Origin: Geobacter sulfurreducens PCA
Lineage (GTDB): Bacteria > Desulfobacterota > Desulfuromonadia > Geobacterales > Geobacteraceae
Length of the DNA: 32,000 bases
Reading direction: 5' to 3'
Assembly (NCBI RefSeq): GCF_000007985.2
Contig: NC_002939.5
Span: 1,860,001 to 1,892,000 of the forward strand
Shown piece by piece: positions 1,358-18,669 of this stretch; position 1 is the stretch's first letter; every line of letters begins with the position of its first letter. The position numbers were made by a program, and so were the translations under genes. The notes below the pieces were generated by a model, which saw only the letters and a program-made list of their open reading frames with translations, made no database searches and had not been told where the DNA came from.

Positions 1358-3616
1358 TCAGTTGCTTTGCGCGTCGACAACGGCAATGGCTGCCATGTTG
1401 ACGATATCCATTACGTCATCGCCGCGCTGCAGTACGTGCACCGGCTTCTTCATTCCCATGAGAATCGGGCCGATGGCGTCGGCTCCGCCAAGGCGGGTAA
1501 GGAGCTTGTAGCTGATGTTGCCCGAGTTCAGGTCGGGGAAAATGAGGATGTTTGCTCCGCCTTTGAGTGTGGCAAAGGGATAATGGGACTCCAGAATGTC
1601 AGGCACAACGGCGGTGTCGGCCTGCATCTCGCCGTCGATTATCAGTTCCGGCGCCCGCTGTTTGACGATCTCCGCAGCCCGCTTGACCTTGAGGGCCTGG
1701 GGGTGGTTGACGGAACCAAAGTTGGAAAATGAAAGCATGGCGATACGGGGGTCGAGATCCAGAAGCCGTGCCTTCTCGGCTGCCAGTATGGCGGTTTCGG
1801 CCAGTTCCTCGGCGGTAGGCTCGATGCAGACCGTGGTGTCGGCCAGCAGGAAAATGCCCCGCTTGAAAACCATGAGGTAAAGGCCGTGGACGCTGGAGAG
1901 GCCTTCCTGCTTGCCGATCACTTCAAGGGCAGGGCGGATGATGTCGGGATAATGGGCATCAATGCCAGAAAGCAGAGCATCGGCATCGCCGCAACGGACC
2001 ATCTCGCAGCCGAAATAAGTGCGGCCCCGGCGCCGGATCATGCGGCGGGCCTCGGTCAGGGTGATCCCTTTCCGCTGCCGCTGCTCGAACAGGGCTTGGG
2101 AGTAACGCTCAGTGTCGGGGCTGTCGTCTGGGTCAATGATAGTGACGCCGCCATTAAGATCAAGGTTGAGCTCTTCGATCTTTTTGCGGATTTCCTGCCG
2201 ATTGCCCAGGAGGATCGGATAGGCGATCCCCTCTTCGATCATCACTTGTGCGGCCCGAAGGATCTTTTCATTCTCGCCCTCGGGCAAGACGACCCGCTTG
2301 GGATCGGTCTTCGCCTTGTTGATGATGAGGCGCAGAGTCTCCTTGGCCTTGCCCTGGAGCGTCTCCAGATGCTCCATGTACTTTTCCATGTCGGCAATGG
2401 GCTGGCGGGCGACCCCCGACTCCATGGCCGCCTTGGCAACGGCAGGAGCCACCCTCAGGAGCGCGCGGGGATCAAAGGGCTTAGGAATGATGTACTCGCG
2501 ACCGAAGGCGAATTTCTTATTGCCGTACGCACGACACACCGAGTCCGGGCAGTCCTCTTTGGCCAGTTCGGCCAGAGCGAAGACGCACGCCTTTTTCATG
2601 GTCTCATTGATGGTCGTGGCCCGCACATCGAGTGCGCCGCGGAAGATGAAGGGGAAGCCCAGAACGTTATTCACCTGGTTAGGATAGTCGGAGCGGCCGG
2701 TGGCCATGATGGCGTCGGCCCGGACCGCCGCCACCTCCTCGGGGGTGATTTCGGGATCGGGGTTTGCCATGGCGAAGATGATCGGGTTGGGCGCCATGTC
2801 ACGGATCATTTCGGGGGTGAATGCCCCCTTGCTGGAGAGGCCGTAGGCCACATCGGCATTTTTGAAGGCATCTTCCAGGGTGCGGTCTTCGGTTTCGACG
2901 GCGAAGCGCTCCTTGTACTCGTTCATGCCGGCGCTACGTCCCTTGAAGATGACGCCCTTGGTATCGCAGAGAATGATGTTCTCCTTTTTCGCACCAAGTT
3001 CAACCGCCATCTGGGCGCAGGCGATGCCGGAGGCTCCGGCGCCGTTGACCACGATCTTGATGTCTTCGATCTTCTTGCCGACCAGTTCAAGGGCATTGAT
3101 GAGGGCTGCGCCGGAAATGATGGCGGTGCCATGCTGATCGTCGTGGAAGACCGGAATGTTCATGGTCTCCTTGAGCTTTTCCTCGATATAAAAGCATTCA
3201 GGTGCCTTGATGTCCTCAAGGTTTATGCCGCCGAAGGTCGGTTCCAGCAACTGGCAGACCTTGATTATTTCGTCAGCGTTTTTGGTGTCAACCTCGATGT
3301 CGAAGACATCGATATCGGCAAAACGCTTGAAGAGAACCCCTTTGCCCTCCATGACCGGTTTGCCGGCCAAGGCGCCGATGTCACCGAGACCGAGAACGGC
3401 CGTACCGTTGGACAATACCGCCACCAGATTCCCCTTGGCAGTATATTTATATGCGTCTTCAGGGTTTTTTTCGATTTCAAGACAAGGTTCGGCTACACCG
3501 GGTGAGTAGGCAAGGGAGAGGTCGCGCTGGGTAAGACATGGTTTTGACGGAATTACCTCTATCTTCCCTTTTCGTCCTGTGGAGTGATAATCAAGGGCGT
3601 CCTGCTTTTTGCTCAT
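1358..3616 (-). CDS. maeB: NADP-dependent malic enzyme (malic enzyme domain fused to a phosphotransacetylase-like C-terminal domain)
   Basis: 752-aa ORF. The N-terminal half has the malic-enzyme signature context (ALDYH...[28 protein letters not shown]ossmann motif). The C-terminal ~330 aa is PTA-like, which is the characteristic MaeB architecture. Confidence 0.95.
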
Positions 3617-8695: not shown

Positions 8696-8735
8696 TGACG
8701 GCCCGCAACCCAGGTGGAGCCGTCATCCTTTTTTT
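8696..8735 (+). terminator. Rho-independent terminator after the MCP gene
   Basis: Stem TGACGGC (8696-8702) / GCCGTCA (8719-8725), extendable inward, followed by TCCTTTTTTT (8726-8735). Confidence 0.65.
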
Positions 8736-8883
8736 CGGATATACTGCCTGGATTCACGACTGAACCGGGACGGAAGGCAATAGCCGCACCGACGAGGATA
8801 GGATGAGCTTTCCCTTCCATGGTCGTTTTCGTGCGCCTCCGGACCCCGGTGGCGCATTTGTTATTTGACAGGGGACAACCACG

Positions 8884-10583: not shown

Positions 10584-12254
10584 ATGAAGCGAACCATGCC
10601 GAAAAATCGTGACGCAGCTCGTGCCAGCCTTGAGAACCTCTACCGGATCTTCACCGTGCCTGAAGCACCCGACTCGACCCTCGGCGCTATCGATCAGGCG
10701 ATTTCCGGCGATGTTACCGGTTTCCTGCAGACCCATATCGTCGCCATCGAGCGTGATCTGGAAGATATCGAAGCAAATTTCTCTTCCTTCTCCATTCCGG
10801 AAGAACCGACCTACGTTTCCGAATACACCGAATTCGTCAAAGAGAACCTCGTCGCCCACTCGGTCCATACCGCTTCGCCGGCGTTCGTCGGTCACATGAC
10901 CTCGGCGCTCCCGTACTTCATGCTGCCGCTGGCGCGTCTCATGACCGCCCTCAACCAGAACGTGGTCAAGGTGGAGACATCCAAGGCCTTTACACCGATG
11001 GAACGGCAGGTCCTTGCCATGCTTCACCACTTGGTCTATCGCCGCGACGAGGACTTCTACCCATCATGGATTCATAACAGCCGGCATGCTCTGGGGGCCT
11101 TTTGTTCCGGCGGTACCATCGCCAATATTACGGCCCTGTGGGTGGCACGCAACCGCCTGTTTGCCCCGAACGGAGCATTTCGCGGCATTGCCCAGGAGGG
11201 GCTGGCCCGTGCGCTTAAGCATCGCGGCGCGGACGGCATTGCCGTGCTCGTCTCCGAACGGGGGCACTACTCCCTGGGAAAGGCGACCGACCTGCTCGGC
11301 ATTGGCCGGGACGATCTGGTCAAGGTGAAAACCGACGCGAACAACCGCATTGACCTCAAGGCACTGAGAGAAGAGTGCCGGCGCTTCCAGGACCGGAACA
11401 CGCTCCCGCTGGCACTGGTCGGCATCGCCGGAACCACCGAAACCGGCAACGTGGACCCTCTGGAGGCGATGGCCGATCTTGCTCAGGAACTTGGCTGCCA
11501 TTTCCATGTGGATGCCGCGTGGGGTGGACCGACCCTCTTTTCGGATCGCCACCGCTCTCTGCTTAAGGGTATCGAGCGAGCCGACTCGGTCACCATTGAC
11601 GGGCATAAGCAGCTCTATGTGCCGATGGGGGCGGGAATGGTCGTCTTCAAGGATCCCACCGCCCTGTCGGCCATCGAGCATCACGCCAACTATATCCTGC
11701 GCCACGGTTCCAAGGACCTGGGCAGCCATACCCTGGAGGGATCACGGCCGGGGAAGGCGATGTTGGTACATGCCGGTTTCTCGATCATTGGACGCAAAGG
11801 GTACGAACTGCTGATCGACATGGGGATCGAACGTGCTCGCACCTTTGCCGACATGATCAAGCAGCATCCCGATTTCGAACTGATCAGCGAACCGGAACTG
11901 AATATCCTTACTTATCGCTACTGCCCGGCCGCCGTTCAGCAGACCTTGCACGACGTGACGGACCGGGAACGCGCCGATATCAATGCACTCCTCGATCTGG
12001 TCTGCCAGTTGCTGCAGAAATTCCAGCGCGAAGCCGGGAAAACATTTGTCTCCCGGACACGGCTGCATGTGGCGCGCCATGATCGGGAACTCACCGTGCT
12101 GCGCGTCGTCCTGGCCAACCCGCTGACAACTGACGAGATTCTGGAGTCCGTACTGGCGGAGCAGTGTGAACTCGTGCAACTGCCGGAGATTCAGGCAGTG
12201 CTGCAGCAGGTGGAAGAGCTCTGTACCGGCTTGGCAAAAGCAGCTTCATGGTAG
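10584..12254 (+). CDS. PLP-dependent group II amino-acid decarboxylase (candidate aspartate 1-decarboxylase supplying beta-alanine)
   Basis: 556 aa with the group II decarboxylase PLP-lysine context SVTIDGHKQLYVPMGAGMVVF and the GGTIANITAL motif. It lies immediately downstream of panBC in the same orientation. Substrate assignment is inference from context. Confidence 0.85.
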   Translation: MKRTMPKNRDAARASLENLYRIFTVPEAPDSTLGAIDQAISGDVTGFLQTHIVAIERDLEDIEANFSSFSIPEEPTYVSEYTEFVKENLVAHSVHTASPAFVGHMTSALPYFMLPLARLMTALNQNVVKVETSKAFTPMERQVLAMLHHLVYRRDEDFYPSWIHNSRHALGAFCSGGTIANITALWVARNRLFAPNGAFRGIAQEGLARALKHRGADGIAVLVSERGHYSLGKATDLLGIGRDDLVKVKTDANNRIDLKALREECRRFQDRNTLPLALVGIAGTTETGNVDPLEAMADLAQELGCHFHVDAAWGGPTLFSDRHRSLLKGIERADSVTIDGHKQLYVPMGAGMVVFKDPTALSAIEHHANYILRHGSKDLGSHTLEGSRPGKAMLVHAGFSIIGRKGYELLIDMGIERARTFADMIKQHPDFELISEPELNILTYRYCPAAVQQTLHDVTDRERADINALLDLVCQLLQKFQREAGKTFVSRTRLHVARHDRELTVLRVVLANPLTTDEILESVLAEQCELVQLPEIQAVLQQVEELCTGLAKAASW

Positions 12255-13655: not shown

Positions 13656-14117
13656 ATGGGAGAAAAGCTGATCTGCAACAACAAGAAAGCGTTTCACGAT
13701 TTCTTCATAGAAGAGCGTTTTGAAGCGGGAATGGTGCTGAAGGGGACCGAGGTGAAATCCCTTCGCGACGGCAAGGCAAACCTCAATGATTCCTTTGCCT
13801 TGATCCGTAACGGTGAAATCTTTCTGCACAATCTCCACATCAATCCCTACGCGTTCGGCAACCGGGAGAACCACGATCCTGACAGGCTGCGCAAGCTCCT
13901 GATGCATAAGAAAGAGATCGAAAAGCTCTTCGGCAAGATCCGCGAAAAGGGATACTCGGTTGTGCCGTTGCGCCTCTACTTCAAGAATGGCCTCGCCAAG
14001 GTCGAGTTGGGACTTGCCAAGGGCAAGAAGCTCTACGACAAGCGGGAAGACATGAAGAAGAAAGACCAGTCGAGGGAGATGGCCCAGGCCCTCAGAGAAA
14101 AGAGCAAGAGTCACTGA
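13656..14117 (+). CDS. smpB: SsrA-binding protein
   Basis: 153 aa, typical SmpB ([27 protein letters not shown]...LHNLHINPY...[10 protein letters not shown]), located directly upstream of tmRNA. Confidence 0.95.
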
Positions 14118-14130
14118 ACAGAGTTTACAA

Positions 14131-14489
<359 letters not shown>

Positions 14490-14570: not shown

Positions 14571-16241
14571 ATGGGTTTTCCTTTTTTGGTAAGAAGAGGG
14601 GCAAGGTTCTATTTCAGGGTTCGGATACCTGTTGACCTTAGAGAGCCTTTCGGAAGGCTAGAGGTATGGCGGTCTCTCAAGACGGCAGACCATAAGAAGG
14701 CCCGGACCTTGGGGAAACTTGAGGCAGCCAAAGCCGAAATCACCTTCGAGAAGATGAGGAACAGAGAGTTGACCAGAGACCAGCTAAGAAAGATTGCTGA
14801 AGAGTACCTTCATTCAACCTTGGAATACTGCGAAGGGCACAGGGAAGGGGGCTTTCTCCCAAGGACACATGATGAGAAAGAGGGCAAGCTACTTGCGTAT
14901 GGTGATCTAGCTGATCGTTACAAGGGGGCGCTGTCTGACTTGGACGTTCAAGAGACAAGGGCCAGAGGGCTGAAGAGGGCCGGGGAGCTGGTGGATTCTG
15001 TCCTGAAGGAAAGAGGGCTTACGCTGCCGAAGGATTCAGAGGAATACGCAATCCTTGCACGGGAACTGCTCAAGAGGGCGCTAGAGGTGTGCACCGTTGA
15101 AGCGTCTCGGATTATGGGGGACTACTCTAATGATTACGACAGAAGCCGCCTGTATCGGCAACAAGAGGCCGCGGAAGAGAAACAGGCGGGGTTGCTACTC
15201 TCCGAGGTGATTCAGGCGTATGTAAAGGACCATCTCACCTGTAAGAAGTGGACACCAAAGACGGAACAGGAGAACACAAGTATCCTTGCTGTATTCCTTG
15301 AGCTGATAGGGGACCGTGATATTACAACCATCACCCATCAAGACCTCATGAGCTTCAGGGATACACTGGTGAAGCTGCCAGCTAATCCGAAGAAGGGGAG
15401 GGCAAAGGAAGGGAAGCCCCTGAAAGAAGTCCTAGAAATGGGCCTTCCCCCGATGAGTCTAACCACCGTGAGAAAGTACCTTATACGGATTGCTTCTTTC
15501 TTCAAGTGGGCGAAGCTACACAAGTACGTCACCACCAATGAAGCTGAGGGGTTGACCATAAAGGAAAAGAAGAAGGTGAAGGCTTCAGCAGCACGAGACA
15601 CCTACGATAGTGAGGATATTCAACGGCTATTCCGTGCCCTTGAGTACGCCCCAAATAAACCTGAACGCTTTTGGATACCGTTGATCTCCCTCTATTCAGG
15701 GGCACGGCTGAATGAGATATGCCAGTTACACCTTGAGGACGTGCAAGATATTGATGGCGTCCCTTGCTTCCGTATTGAGGAGGAGGGGTCAAAGAAGGTA
15801 AAAACCGTGGCTGGCAAAAGGGTTGTCCCCGTTCACCCCGTATTGATTGAACTTGGTTTCATGCGATATGTGCAAATGCTCCGCGAGAAGGGAGCGAAGC
15901 GCCTATGGGAAAACCTGAAGTTGAAGCGTGACGGCTACGGTCAAGACTTCGGGAAGTGGTATCAGCGGTTCAACCGTAGGTATATCACATCCCACAAGAA
16001 GAAGGTGTTTCACTCCTTCAGGCACACCGTAGCCACGGCTATGAAGCAATCAGGGGTTCTTGAAACTGTAGCGGCTGAAGTCTTAGGGCATGAAAACTCA
16101 AACATGACATACAGCCTATATGGAAAGGGCTATTACCCGAGACCGTTACTTGAGGCACTCTTGAAGCTGGACTATGGGGTTGACATTGGGGAACTGAGGG
16201 AGAAGGCTAACACGGGGCTGAATTACCGCCCAAGGAAGTGA
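14571..16241 (+). CDS. Tyrosine-type site-specific recombinase (phage integrase family) with a long N-terminal extension
   Basis: 556 aa with C-terminal catalytic motifs ARLNEICQL (Arg), HSFRHTVAT (His-x-x-Arg) and LGHENSNMTYSLYGKG (His...Tyr). It is adjacent to the ssrA attachment site. Confidence 0.9.
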   Translation: MGFPFLVRRGARFYFRVRIPVDLREPFGRLEVWRSLKTADHKKARTLGKLEAAKAEITFEKMRNRELTRDQLRKIAEEYLHSTLEYCEGHREGGFLPRTHDEKEGKLLAYGDLADRYKGALSDLDVQETRARGLKRAGELVDSVLKERGLTLPKDSEEYAILARELLKRALEVCTVEASRIMGDYSNDYDRSRLYRQQEAAEEKQAGLLLSEVIQAYVKDHLTCKKWTPKTEQENTSILAVFLELIGDRDITTITHQDLMSFRDTLVKLPANPKKGRAKEGKPLKEVLEMGLPPMSLTTVRKYLIRIASFFKWAKLHKYVTTNEAEGLTIKEKKKVKASAARDTYDSEDIQRLFRALEYAPNKPERFWIPLISLYSGARLNEICQLHLEDVQDIDGVPCFRIEEEGSKKVKTVAGKRVVPVHPVLIELGFMRYVQMLREKGAKRLWENLKLKRDGYGQDFGKWYQRFNRRYITSHKKKVFHSFRHTVATAMKQSGVLETVAAEVLGHENSNMTYSLYGKGYYPRPLLEALLKLDYGVDIGELREKANTGLNYRPRK

Positions 16242-16321
16242 AAAAAACAGATAGGAACACAGGGGAGACTATTGTTAACCATAAGGGATACATAGGTTGA
16301 CCATTGAGAAAATATAGATAT

Positions 16322-16337
16322 TGGCACTATAGTTGCA
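16322..16337 (+). promoter_or_regulatory. Sigma-54 (RpoN) -24/-12 promoter element
   Basis: TGGCAC-TATAG-TTGCA matches the TGGCAC-N5-TTGCW consensus at every specified base with correct GG-to-GC spacing. It points into an ORF-free repeat region. Confidence 0.45.
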
Positions 16338-16370
16338 ATAATGCCCCCCCCTATAGTAGATACCTTATGT

Positions 16371-16600
16371 TTTACACCAGAGTCTTTCACCAGTGTAAGG
16401 GTTTTACCGGCTACGCCGTAGTAGGTAATAACTCTACAGTAGTCCCTTAGAGTAGAACTGTAGCGGCTACTAGAGTATTACACCAGAGTTTACACCAGTG
16501 TTACCCTAGAGTATGGGAATTTACAGGGGTAAGGAGTAGTAAGAGTATCCCTTAAGTCTCTGATTATCCCCAGAGTTTCACCCTTAAGTATCTGATTTAG
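16371..16600. repeat. Degenerate ~100-bp tandem repeat / iteron-like array in an ORF-free spacer
   Basis: CACCAG(A/T)GT occurs four times (16375, 16388, 16481, 16493) as two 26-nt blocks 106 nt apart, with a third partial block at 16568. The 18-mer CCCTTAAGT(C/A)TCTGATT(A/T) is at 16549 and 16581. AGAGTA occurs four times. The inverted repeat CTACAGT (16434) / ACTGTAG (16457) is also present. Confidence 0.5.
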
Positions 16601-16905
16601 ACCGATAGAAAATTGGATTTTATAGAACATAGTACTCCATTTCTAAAACATACACCAATCACAGGCGGTATTCTCTTCTTAAAGTGGTGAGATGAAAAAT
16701 TTCTATGTGATTACCTACACTTAAGCGTAAACATCTGATAGGTTCCTTCTATAAGTGGGCACATGAAAATACTCCTGATTACTGGTACTTACCGGGTACC
16801 CATGCCATAAGGAAACATAAGGGAGAATCTCCAGGCCGCTTGTCCGACAATGTGAGGGCAACACACGGGCCAGGGTTAAAGAATCTCCCTCTTTACGTTC
16901 TCCAG

Positions 16906-17478
16906 TCAACAGGCATTGCCAACCGAACCCTTGTGCTCCTGAATGATCCGGTAAACCGATGCTACCCCGATCCCAAGTTCATCCGCTACGGTCTGCTTTC
17001 CCTTGCCTTGTGCAATGAGGCTCAACACTTCCCCCGCCTTTGCCTTCGCCGTGGCCTTCCGCCCTGTGTAGCGTCCCTCTGCCTTCGCCGTGGCGATCCC
17101 TTCCCGTTGCCTCTCAAGCATCATCTCCCGTTCAAACGTGGCGATTGCCCCCAACATTGTCAACATGAGCTTGCCTGTGGGCGTTGTGGTATCAAGGTTC
17201 AGGTTCAACACCCGAAAGGCTACGCCCTTCCTCTCTAGCGTCTCGGTTATCTCAAGAAGGTGTGCCGTACTCCTGGCGATCCTGTCCAGCTTGCAGACCA
17301 CCACAACGTCACCCTCACGCACGTAATCCAACATCGCCACCAGTTCAGGTCGATCACGCTTCACACCTGACACCTTTTCCCGGTAGAGACGATCACAACC
17401 GGCCTCAGTTAGTTGCTTCACCTGTGCTGTCAGGTCTTGATCCTCAGTGCTCACCCTTGCATAACCTATCATTGCCAT
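16906..17478 (-). CDS. Serine recombinase (resolvase/invertase family, Hin/Gin-like size)
   Basis: The N-terminal catalytic motif MIGYARVSTEDQDL, the context ...VVCKLDRIARS..., and a C-terminal HTH (TVADELGIGVASVYRII) are present. I prefer ATG 17478, 8 nt after the RBS GGAGG, over the ORF-track GTG 17487. Confidence 0.9.
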   Translation of the reverse strand: MAMIGYARVSTEDQDLTAQVKQLTEAGCDRLYREKVSGVKRDRPELVAMLDYVREGDVVVVCKLDRIARSTAHLLEITETLERKGVAFRVLNLNLDTTTPTGKLMLTMLGAIATFEREMMLERQREGIATAKAEGRYTGRKATAKAKAGEVLSLIAQGKGKQTVADELGIGVASVYRIIQEHKGSVGNAC

Positions 17479-17490
17479 GGCCCACACCTC

Positions 17491-17585
17491 CTATCAATAG
17501 AGTTAAAGATGTTTCGATAATATTCTATCAAAAACCCAATGTCAACCCTTATGATAGACTATTTCAACCATACCCATACCTATCA
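17491..17585. promoter_or_regulatory. Cluster of CTATCA/TGATAG motifs upstream of the serine recombinase (candidate res/hix-like or operator sites)
   Basis: CTATCA is at 17491, 17525 and 17580 (plus 17466 inside the gene start), and TGATAG at 17552. A 7-bp inverted repeat TCTATCA (17524-17530) / TGATAGA (17552-17558) is present. TATCAAAAACC (17526-17536) equals 11/12 of the Hin hix half-site TTATCAAAAACC as I recall it. Confidence 0.35.
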
Positions 17586-17817
17586 CAAGGGCATGCCCTA
17601 TTGAGAGGCAGGTCAGCAGGCGAGTAAAGTCACTGCCATGTCACCCAGCCACCACAGAGAAGGACAACGGGGTGAAACGAAAGGTACCGCCGAAGAGTCC
17701 TCGCAGTAGCACCATAAGGCACCCCACGGGGGGTAATTCACCAATCCGCGAATCACATATGGCCTTTCACAATTTTGTGGTATTTTGGGCCGAAAACTTC
17801 ACGTAGAGGAGGCCCCA

Positions 17818-18077: not shown

Positions 18078-18294
18078 GTGACCGCCTCTTCCAGTTTGCT
18101 TGCCCTTTTCGGTGAGCAAATAGGCCACCTTTAGGGGTTTATCGGGAAAACCCGGAAAACCTCATAGTCAAGACGGTTGTGGCCGCCATGCTTCGTTTGC
18201 TTCACATTTTCGTGAAATGAACAATAGTCCACCGTTGGGCGACCACCTTTGGGGTTTCTCCCTTTTTCGGTGAAAACCCTCATAGTCCACCCCA
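18078..18294. repeat. Two tandem ~101-nt hairpin-repeat units (18078-18178 and 18179-18294)
   Basis: Both units start GTG(A/G)CCGCC. Each contains a hairpin with an (A/C)TTTTC loop, a TAG(T/G)CCACC 9-mer, TTT(A/G)GGGG plus a second hairpin, and CATAGTC. The second unit carries a 14-nt internal duplication (18234-18247). Confidence 0.6.
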
Positions 18295-18541
18295 TCACGC
18301 AAATCTGCTTGGCGGCGTCTAAAGAGATGAGGTATTCGATGGTCTTTTGAGGACGCGCTTTTGTGCTCCCCGATTTCGGGGAGCTCAAACCTTGAGCGGT
18401 GATATAGTCCACCCCATCGACCAACATAGCCTTAACGATCTGTTCCTTAATCCAAGAGGAGAAGTCTTTGCGCACCCCAAGGGCCTTATGTAGCTCCCTT
18501 GCGTCTACTGCGTTGACTGTCCCGGCACTGAGTACTTTCAC
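18131..18541 (-). CDS. AntA/KilAC-type phage antirepressor-like protein; 3' third is built from repeat units, so it may be chimeric or decayed
   Basis: GTG start. Residues 1-90 resemble AntA-type antirepressor domains (VDARELHKALGVRKDFSSWIKEQI...GVDYI...IEYLISLDAAKQICVM). The last ~45 codons are the translation of the hairpin repeats and lose family resemblance. Confidence 0.55.
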   Translation of the reverse strand: MKVLSAGTVNAVDARELHKALGVRKDFSSWIKEQIVKAMLVDGVDYITAQGLSSPKSGSTKARPQKTIEYLISLDAAKQICVMGWTMRVFTEKGRNPKGGRPTVDYCSFHENVKQTKHGGHNRLDYEVFRVFPINP

Positions 18542-18636
18542 CTCTCAGGCTTCCGTATTTGGCTTCTGAGCGGTTTTCATTGGCTAACCCTAGTCATCCT
18601 ATTACCAAATAAGGCGGCTTATTTTAGGCGTCTCTA

Positions 18637-18669
18637 CTGCTTGGCGCGTCTAAAGAGATGAGGTATTCG
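18637..18669. repeat. Near-identical copy of an AntA coding fragment (partner at 18305-18338)
   Basis: CTGCTTGGCGCGTCTAAAGAGATGAGGTATTCG differs from 18305-18338 only by a 1-nt indel (GGCGGCG vs GGCGCG). The partner encodes IEYLISLDAAKQ, while this copy is outside any ORF. Confidence 0.7.

Follow-up and report, generated by a model that had tools for sequence, protein, structure and literature searches.

Within a 32,000-nucleotide stretch of the Geobacter sulfurreducens PCA chromosome (NC_002939.5, positions 1,860,001 to 1,892,000; hereafter the window, in which positions are counted from its first letter), a small island inserted in the tmRNA gene carries the sequence TGGCAC-TATAG-TTGCA (TGGCACTATAGTTGCA) at 16322..16337 on the plus strand. 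Judged by its sequence, this is a top-grade −24/−12 element for sigma-54 (RpoN), and it lies in a host that contains RpoN. The element stands in the 664-bp gap between the integrase gene of the island and a convergent gene for a small serine recombinase. We rate as about even the prospect that the RpoN holoenzyme truly binds this element and uses it as a promoter. On that reading it marks the 5' boundary of a conserved non-coding module that recurs in small tmRNA-inserted islands of Geobacter relatives.

An earlier note on this DNA, made from the letters alone, had described a perfect TGGCAC-N5-TTGCW match at this position, had found no other correctly spaced copy in the window, and had put the chance expectation at about 0.06; all three statements hold. 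In an exact pattern search, TGGCACTATAGTTGCA is the sole match on both strands of the window, with its GG (16323-16324) and GC (16335-16336) exactly 10 bp apart, and shuffled sequences lead one to expect 0.05 matches per window (5 of 100 shuffled windows gave one match). Scoring with a sigma-54 weight matrix, which the same note had proposed, agrees with this assignment. Of the 110 RpoN sites that Leang et al. published for G. sulfurreducens, 90 went into the position weight matrix, namely the 17-mers that could be cleanly extracted, and it should be mentioned that these training sites are mostly predictions themselves. TGGCACTATAGTTGCA scores 17.7 bits, which would place it 7th among the 90 training sites, and the second-best score on either strand of the window (64 kb in all) is 14.0 bits. 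Two sites of that list, described below, recur in the window at a constant offset, so that the coordinates of Leang et al. correspond to window positions plus 1,860,004; on this scale the window covers PCA 1,860,005-1,892,004 and the element occupies 1,876,326-1,876,341.

Related loci were gathered through relatives of the integrase and relatives of the recombinase. Among the fetched loci, an nhmmer search found a conserved non-coding block only in L006, L011, L032, and L033, the last of which is a fragment of the L032 type. In the window this block spans 16319..16385 on the plus strand and comprises the element, a run of C, the motif TAT..GATAC..ATGTTTTACAC, and the first of a series of short direct repeats (iterons). 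In L011 the element is identical (0 mismatches), and the integrase and recombinase are 95% and approximately 80% identical to those of the window, the latter value being an estimate from a partial gene. The element of L032 is also identical (0 mismatches), in the company of an integrase that is 36% and a recombinase that is 78% identical to the window, and the module as a whole is 87% identical there despite the distance between the integrases. L006 has an integrase 59% and a recombinase 38% identical to those of the window. Its element, TGGCATTATGTTTGCA (TGGCAT-TATGT-TTGCA), carries three substitutions, two of them in the spacer, and retains the GG, the GC, the TTGCA, and the spacing; its matrix score is 17.1 bits. 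The block (82% identical over 68 nt to L006 8128-8193) is the sole alignable part of the gap between these two loci, the remainder being unalignable; the aligned DNA runs from the 5' edge of the −24 element to approximately 50 nt inside the predicted transcript.

Absence of the motif from otherwise conserved copies of the island had been named in the earlier note as an outcome that would speak against the proposal. None of the four independent copies of the module (window, L011, L032, and L006) lacks the element, and each has kept the GG/GC and the spacing. Because the module is kept beside an integrase of 36% identity in L032 and a recombinase of 38% identity in L006, it persists as a unit through mosaic exchange. 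The block was not found in L012, L013, L015, L016, L017, L019, or L021, all of the same integrase family, even with nhmmer; blastn against phage and plasmid collections returned no further copies of the block, two pattern scans of metagenomes for the module gave nothing or only chance marine matches, and three scans of a viral contig collection gave no further copies of the module. As a separate observation, a sigma-54-like site with one mismatch, TGGCACCAACAATGCT, followed by a C6 run, lies on the minus strand at L017 8007-8022 and L018 3318-3333. The island there has an integrase of 61% identity, and the site, which could be due to chance, precedes a DarT/NADAR toxin-antitoxin operon by 150 nt.

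Downstream of the element there is no evident gene for it to drive. The earlier note had reported about 560 bp with no plus-strand open reading frame (ORF) of 60 aa or more. This is correct for 16338-16839; at 16840, however, a TTG opens a 132-aa ORF that runs antisense to the recombinase gene; this ORF is probably spurious. The same note had listed two short ATG frames, of 27 and 36 codons. The frame at 16341 is indeed there, whereas the other starts at 16367 and not at 16368, and their lengths are 26 aa (16341-16421) and 27 aa. A small conserved peptide was rejected as an explanation, as L006 does not keep the 26-aa frame at 16341 and the copies have no ORF in common.

A structured RNA was likewise rejected. 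Compared with shuffled sequences, the folds give z-scores close to zero: −0.46 (window, plus strand), −0.70 (window, minus strand), and +0.22 (L006). An Rfam scan at the gathering thresholds returned only the tmRNA and a pan motif, and a permissive scan of 16200-16950 added one match at chance level (osmY, E = 2.1). No terminator-like site in the direction of the promoter was found in 16100-17700 of the window, in 8050-9100 of L006, or in L032. With terminator, fold, and RNA family all lacking, the locus does not resemble a discrete gene for a sigma-54-dependent small RNA. The element is convergent with the recombinase gene in the window, L006, L011, and L032, at 290-570 nt from the 3' end of that gene, and no terminator intervenes in the window, L006, or L032 (for L011 the comparison covers orientation only). 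The earlier note had suggested that the product, if the promoter is active, would be a non-coding RNA or a transcript antisense to the recombinase gene, and this is what the anatomy allows, there being neither an ORF as a target nor an intervening terminator.

From the standard −24/−12 geometry, transcription would start at approximately 16348, 12 nt after the C of the −12 element and inside a C8 homopolymer (16344..16351, plus strand). The window, L011, and L006 have C8 here, whereas L032 (approximately 3317-3326, minus strand) and L033 (approximately 1241-1250), whose contig ends 4 nt upstream of the run, have C10; the tract at the predicted start could be variable in length. Directly upstream of the −24 element are two direct repeats with 22-nt spacing, TGTTAACCATAAGGGATA and GGTTGACCATTGAGAAAA (16273..16312, plus strand). 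At the equivalent place L006 has a different pair, two copies of CAGGGTGATA with 16-nt spacing.

The earlier note had also pointed to degenerate repeats just downstream of the element, and these prove to be an array of at least six direct copies of a unit of approximately 12 nt (TTACACCAGAGT, with CCCTTAAGT variants) at 16368..16600 on the plus strand, arranged in two clusters with 11-13-nt spacing. Six copies of TTACACCAGAGT lie at 16368-16576, and the CCCTTAAGT variants extend to approximately 16600. In the window as a whole the unit has 12 matches against 4.7 expected, six of which cluster in the array; the GC content reported with this region is 0.44-0.45. Equivalent arrays occur in L006 (four copies of TTACCCTTATGT), L011, L032, L012, and L007. 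That of L012 (4592-4705) consists of 8.8 copies of a 13-nt unit, CTTAATGTTTACA, followed by a pyrimidine-rich tract. In L007, TTACCCTTTAAGT repeats at 11610-11640 and 11798-11825 are likewise followed by a pyrimidine-rich tract, and the whole unit of approximately 135 nt is duplicated. Because they are direct, spaced at 11-13 nt, grouped in two clusters, and different in sequence between lineages, the iterons behave as protein-binding sites and not as an RNA gene. TTACAC-type words also lie beside attL and attR, the boundaries of the island, and arm-type sites for the integrase were considered as the main explanation of the iterons and rejected, since L032 has the same iterons with an integrase of only 36% identity. 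For the same reason the integrase is disfavored as the protein that binds them, and the recombinase or the AntA and Bro-N domain proteins of the island are candidates by inference. A second repeated motif, CTTCT(T/A)(A/T)AAGTGG..A.ATGAAAA, occurs in two copies 71 nt apart at 16675..16769 (plus strand), with related copies in L011, L032, and L007.

An iteron-type replication origin is not supported. Iterons are present, but the gap contains no DnaA box, and a domain scan of the island genes finds no replication-initiator, primase, or partition gene; a helper initiator could in principle act in trans. A palindromic operator, TATTGGCACTATAGTTGCAATA, a 22-nt palindrome lying over the element, was rejected, its symmetry being lost in L006.

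Several points weigh against RpoN as the explanation of the element. An exact match alone is no evidence of function, because extrapolation from 0.05 matches per 32-kb window gives approximately six perfect matches by chance in a 3.8-Mb genome. Three of the four independent copies are closely related, with flanks of 87-90% identity, and the calculated probability that 10 of the 11 consensus bases are kept in a block of 82% identity is approximately 0.39. The conservation shows that the block matters, and not that RpoN specifically is the reason. In addition, a start within a C-run is an unusual initiating context; the L012 and L007 arrays have no sigma-54 motif nearby, so that the iteron array is independent of the promoter; upstream of the element there is no conserved IHF-like site and no recognizable inverted-repeat enhancer; and the domain scan finds no gene for an enhancer-binding protein among the island genes. 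The number of perfect matches expected per genome, the closeness of three of the copies, and the lack of a gene to drive would all suit a functionless chance match in AT-rich island DNA, shared by relatives through the ancestry of a block that is conserved for other reasons or has simply not diverged. We consider such an accident very unlikely: in L006 the flanking gap has diverged past alignment, while the block is still 82% identical with its GG, GC, and spacing, and the module survives beside integrases that are 36% identical to each other. The block may instead be a DNA-level site for a protein of the module or the island, origin-like, partition-like, or recombination-accessory, to which the iterons would also belong and whose likeness to a sigma-54 element would be incidental, with no transcription by RpoN from it. 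The surroundings are of a DNA type, with two clusters of direct iterons and a pair of direct repeats right next to the element; there is neither a conserved ORF nor a stable RNA fold; L012 and L007 have arrays without the element; the iteron sequence varies with the recombinase (TTACACCAGAGT versus TTACCCTTATGT, at 38% recombinase identity), which fits a co-evolving DNA-binding protein; and the attP-type junction of L011, described below, fits an excised circle that may need sites in cis. On the contrary, the calculated probability of a perfect 11-position consensus arising by chance in a block of approximately 85 nt is about 1e-4, L006 retains the sigma-54 core but not the palindromic symmetry that a dimeric protein could use, and there is neither a DnaA box in the gap nor an initiator or partition gene in the island. 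We regard a DNA site of this kind as unlikely overall.

The same bases also take part in a sigma-70-like promoter, TTGAGA-N18-TATAGT (16304..16333, plus strand), which agrees with the consensus at 10 of 12 positions and would start transcription at approximately 16340. It might be the working promoter, with RpoN not binding or merely competing, as at Salmonella glmY/glmZ, where fully overlapping sigma-70 and sigma-54 promoters are documented (PMC3844500). L011 and L032 retain it as TTGAAA-N18-TATAGT, but the homologous place in L006 keeps the sigma-54 core and lacks a co-oriented promoter of the sigma-70-like type; moreover, the AT-rich gap yields several such matches, seven against 2.4 expected. 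Sigma-70 as the working factor here is, in our estimation, distinctly unlikely. Both the 22-nt palindrome and the sigma-70-like promoter are thus readings of the same bases that are not conserved in L006, and we counted this in favor of RpoN. A last alternative is a Hin-type invertible promoter, in which the recombinase would flip a 1.37-kb segment between inverted copies of GGGTTGACATTGGG (16177-16190 and 17535-17548). This perfect 14-nt inverted repeat brackets the gap and the recombinase gene, with approximately 0.08 expected by chance in 6.4 kb (an estimate); the recombinase is as near to the Gin invertase as to the gamma-delta resolvase; and GGTTTTTGATAG, beside the right arm, resembles a hix half-site. 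The repeat is not conserved in L006, however, the recombinase gene's own promoter (TTGACA-N17-TATTAT) has its −35 region in the right arm, the loci returned from two public-assembly look-ups show one orientation only, and inversion would truncate and alter the C-terminus of the integrase. Inversion is therefore highly improbable.

If the element is a promoter for RpoN, the events may be pictured as follows, and RpoN binding, the start site, the activator, an antisense or iteron effect, and any phenotype all belong to this picture. A host enhancer-binding protein would activate the element, and transcription would begin in the C-run, at approximately 16348. The transcript would cross the direct repeats of approximately 12 nt, which would act as protein-binding sites in the DNA and not as RNA structure, and, with no terminator in the way, transcription would proceed antisense into the convergent serine recombinase gene. 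Because the transcript would run through the iterons and antisense into the recombinase gene, its product is expected to be non-coding and to act in cis, so that a signal from the host would reach recombinase expression, the state of the iteron array, or the two together. Holoenzyme bound in the closed, not yet activated form could also block access to the sigma-70-like promoter that overlaps the element. I speculate, going further than this, that the module is a switch of miniature tmRNA islands gated by a host signal: a sigma-54 start in a variable poly-C tract (C8/C10) would send the polymerase through iterons whose occupancy decides how the excised circle is maintained, replicated, or packaged, and from there antisense into the recombinase gene. 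Such a switch is a doubtful proposal as it stands. If true, it would couple the behavior of the island to an activator ATPase of the host, and to our knowledge no integrative element uses enhancer-dependent sigma-54 control of this type.

In G. sulfurreducens, rpoN is GSU1887, and attempts to delete it failed, so that the gene is apparently essential (PMC2725144). In 2009, Leang et al. used PromScan to find 798 elements scoring at least 80 in this genome, and their list of 110 RpoN promoters was restricted to non-coding sites upstream of co-oriented protein genes (PMC2725144). TGGCACTATAGTTGCA is not among the 110 published promoters in the supplements of that study, and it is missing because the list kept only sites upstream of co-oriented genes. 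The predicted regulon concerns the same organism and the same consensus, TTGGCACGGTTTTTGCT (PMC2725144), and TGGCACTATAGTTGCA would rank among its best members. Nevertheless, TGGCACTATAGTTGCA is unlisted, while a weaker site on the opposite strand, 520 nt away, is listed, together with one inside the integrase ORF. The former, promoter 53 (CTGGCCCGTGTGTTGCC, 16857..16873, minus strand; PCA 1,876,861-1,876,877), has a PromScan score of 84 and faces into the same gap; its target is a 46-aa ORF at 16490-16630 (published as 1,876,494-1,876,634) that is not conserved, and the site itself is not conserved either, that part of the gap being absent from L011. The latter, promoter 105 (AGGGCAAGCTACTTGCG, 14881-14897, plus strand; PCA 1,874,885), lies inside the full-length integrase ORF, and the published gene, 1,874,995-1,876,245, has an end that coincides with the integrase stop. 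Both published promoters look doubtful. No mention of GSU1709-1712 was found in the literature.

If active, the element would add a non-coding target on a mobile element to the RpoN regulon of the best-studied electroactive bacterium, a kind of site that the published promoter lists excluded by design. It would also offer an experimental handle on a compact module of promoter, C-run, and iterons, which passes between small tmRNA islands in relatives of Geobacter.

Qrr, CrcZ, and NrsZ are familiar examples of sigma-54-dependent small RNA genes. Genes of this kind with overlapping sigma-70 promoters, such as glmY and glmZ (PMC3844500), share with TGGCACTATAGTTGCA a non-coding product (a predicted one here) and an overlapping sigma-70-like promoter (in three of the four copies here); unlike them, the TGGCACTATAGTTGCA locus has no terminator, no conserved or unusually stable fold, no Rfam family, and no recognizable activator site. 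The earlier note had called an enhancer-dependent promoter on a small mobile island an unusual regulatory input, which was overstated, as orphan, intragenic, and convergent-intergenic sigma-54 sites are well documented (PMC3844500). In Salmonella, 41 of 70 sigma-54 sites mapped by ChIP-chip (chromatin immunoprecipitation on microarrays) are intragenic, and four of eight that were tested drove transcription that depended on sigma-54 and an activator; in Escherichia coli, 18% of the sigma-54 sites are intragenic or lie between convergent genes (PMC3844500). Antisense RNA, transcriptional interference, and occlusion have been proposed as roles for such orphan sites (PMC3844500). Like the orphan sites of Salmonella Typhimurium, E. 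coli, and Vibrio cholerae (PMC3844500), TGGCACTATAGTTGCA is a high-scoring −24/−12 element with no co-oriented gene that faces a neighboring gene. Unlike them, it is on a mobile island, forms the conserved edge of a transferable module, and faces an iteron array. Orphan and antisense sigma-54 sites are thus already recognized in other bacteria, and no long-standing question is opened here; what is particular is the setting, a conserved and exchangeable non-coding module on a miniature tmRNA island, facing iterons.

Regions acting in cis in which iterons stand by promoters are found in plasmids and phages, for example R1 parC, P4 ori/crr with its TGTTCACC repeats, and the SaPI ori. They resemble the island in having direct repeats of 11-13 nt at approximately helical spacing beside a promoter, in an element able to excise as a circle. 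The island differs from them in its lack of a replication-initiator, primase, or partition gene and of a DnaA box in the gap. We know of none among these systems that uses sigma-54.

The island itself measures 5.3 kb, has a lower GC content, and is inserted in the tmRNA gene (14131-14486), which is preceded by smpB (13656-14117). It is bounded by a 25-nt direct repeat, 96% identical, consisting of attL at the 3' end of the tmRNA gene (14465..14489, plus strand) and attR (19776-19800). The integrase, of the tyrosine type, has DUF6538 and Phage_integrase domains by domain scan and occupies 14571..16241 on the plus strand; since its ORF ends at 16241, the element does lie 80 nt past the integrase stop, as had been noted earlier. 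The serine recombinase was also correctly placed on the minus strand at 16906..17478 (or 17487); it has Resolvase and HTH_7 domains and is about equally similar to the Gin invertase and the gamma-delta resolvase. The remaining products of the island include the AntA and Bro-N domain proteins and small ORFs. In L011 (640-1100), whose island is 95%-related, the attR-side end, with an 82-aa gene and a partial copy of the tmRNA 3' end, is joined directly to the attL-side integrase leader. This is an attP-type junction and therefore indicates an excised circle or a tandem copy.

Two further stretches lie upstream of the recombinase gene. The first, 17488-17560 in the minus-strand reading, contains TCTATCA-N21-TGATAGA, another CTATTGATAG, and GGTTTTTGATAG, the last of which matches 11 of 12 bases of the Hin hix half-site. 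It is probably a binding or res-like region of the recombinase itself, and L007 has many TGATAG words at the equivalent place. The second is another conserved non-coding block, at 17640-17790 (L006 9230-9310), the core of which is 87% identical to L006. Its minus-strand reading shows CCAAAATAC..CAAAA.TGTGAAAGG.CATAT together with a hairpin-like element, CCCCCCGTGGGG.

A few minor observations concern the rest of the island and its surroundings. The AntA and Bro-N genes (18200-18750) share several direct repeats of 15-39 nt, for example 18315-18341 and 18646-18672 (96% identity). These repeats point to a partial duplication, at a place where one public assembly has a contig break. One relative of the recombinase (P0240, 69% identical, from Citrifermentans bremense) bears the source name “integrative genetic element Gsu5, resolvase”. 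Islands of this kind, then, already carry a curated name in Geobacter annotations. Outside the island, the pan motif (RF01749, 38.6 bits) lies at 8700-8777 on the plus strand, upstream of panB-panC. Finally, two perfect DnaA boxes, TTATCCACA, occur on the minus strand at 19931-19939 and 19952-19960, 21 nt apart and just outside attR, in an AT-rich stretch (19800-20430, GC content 0.37) that is far from the chromosomal origin.

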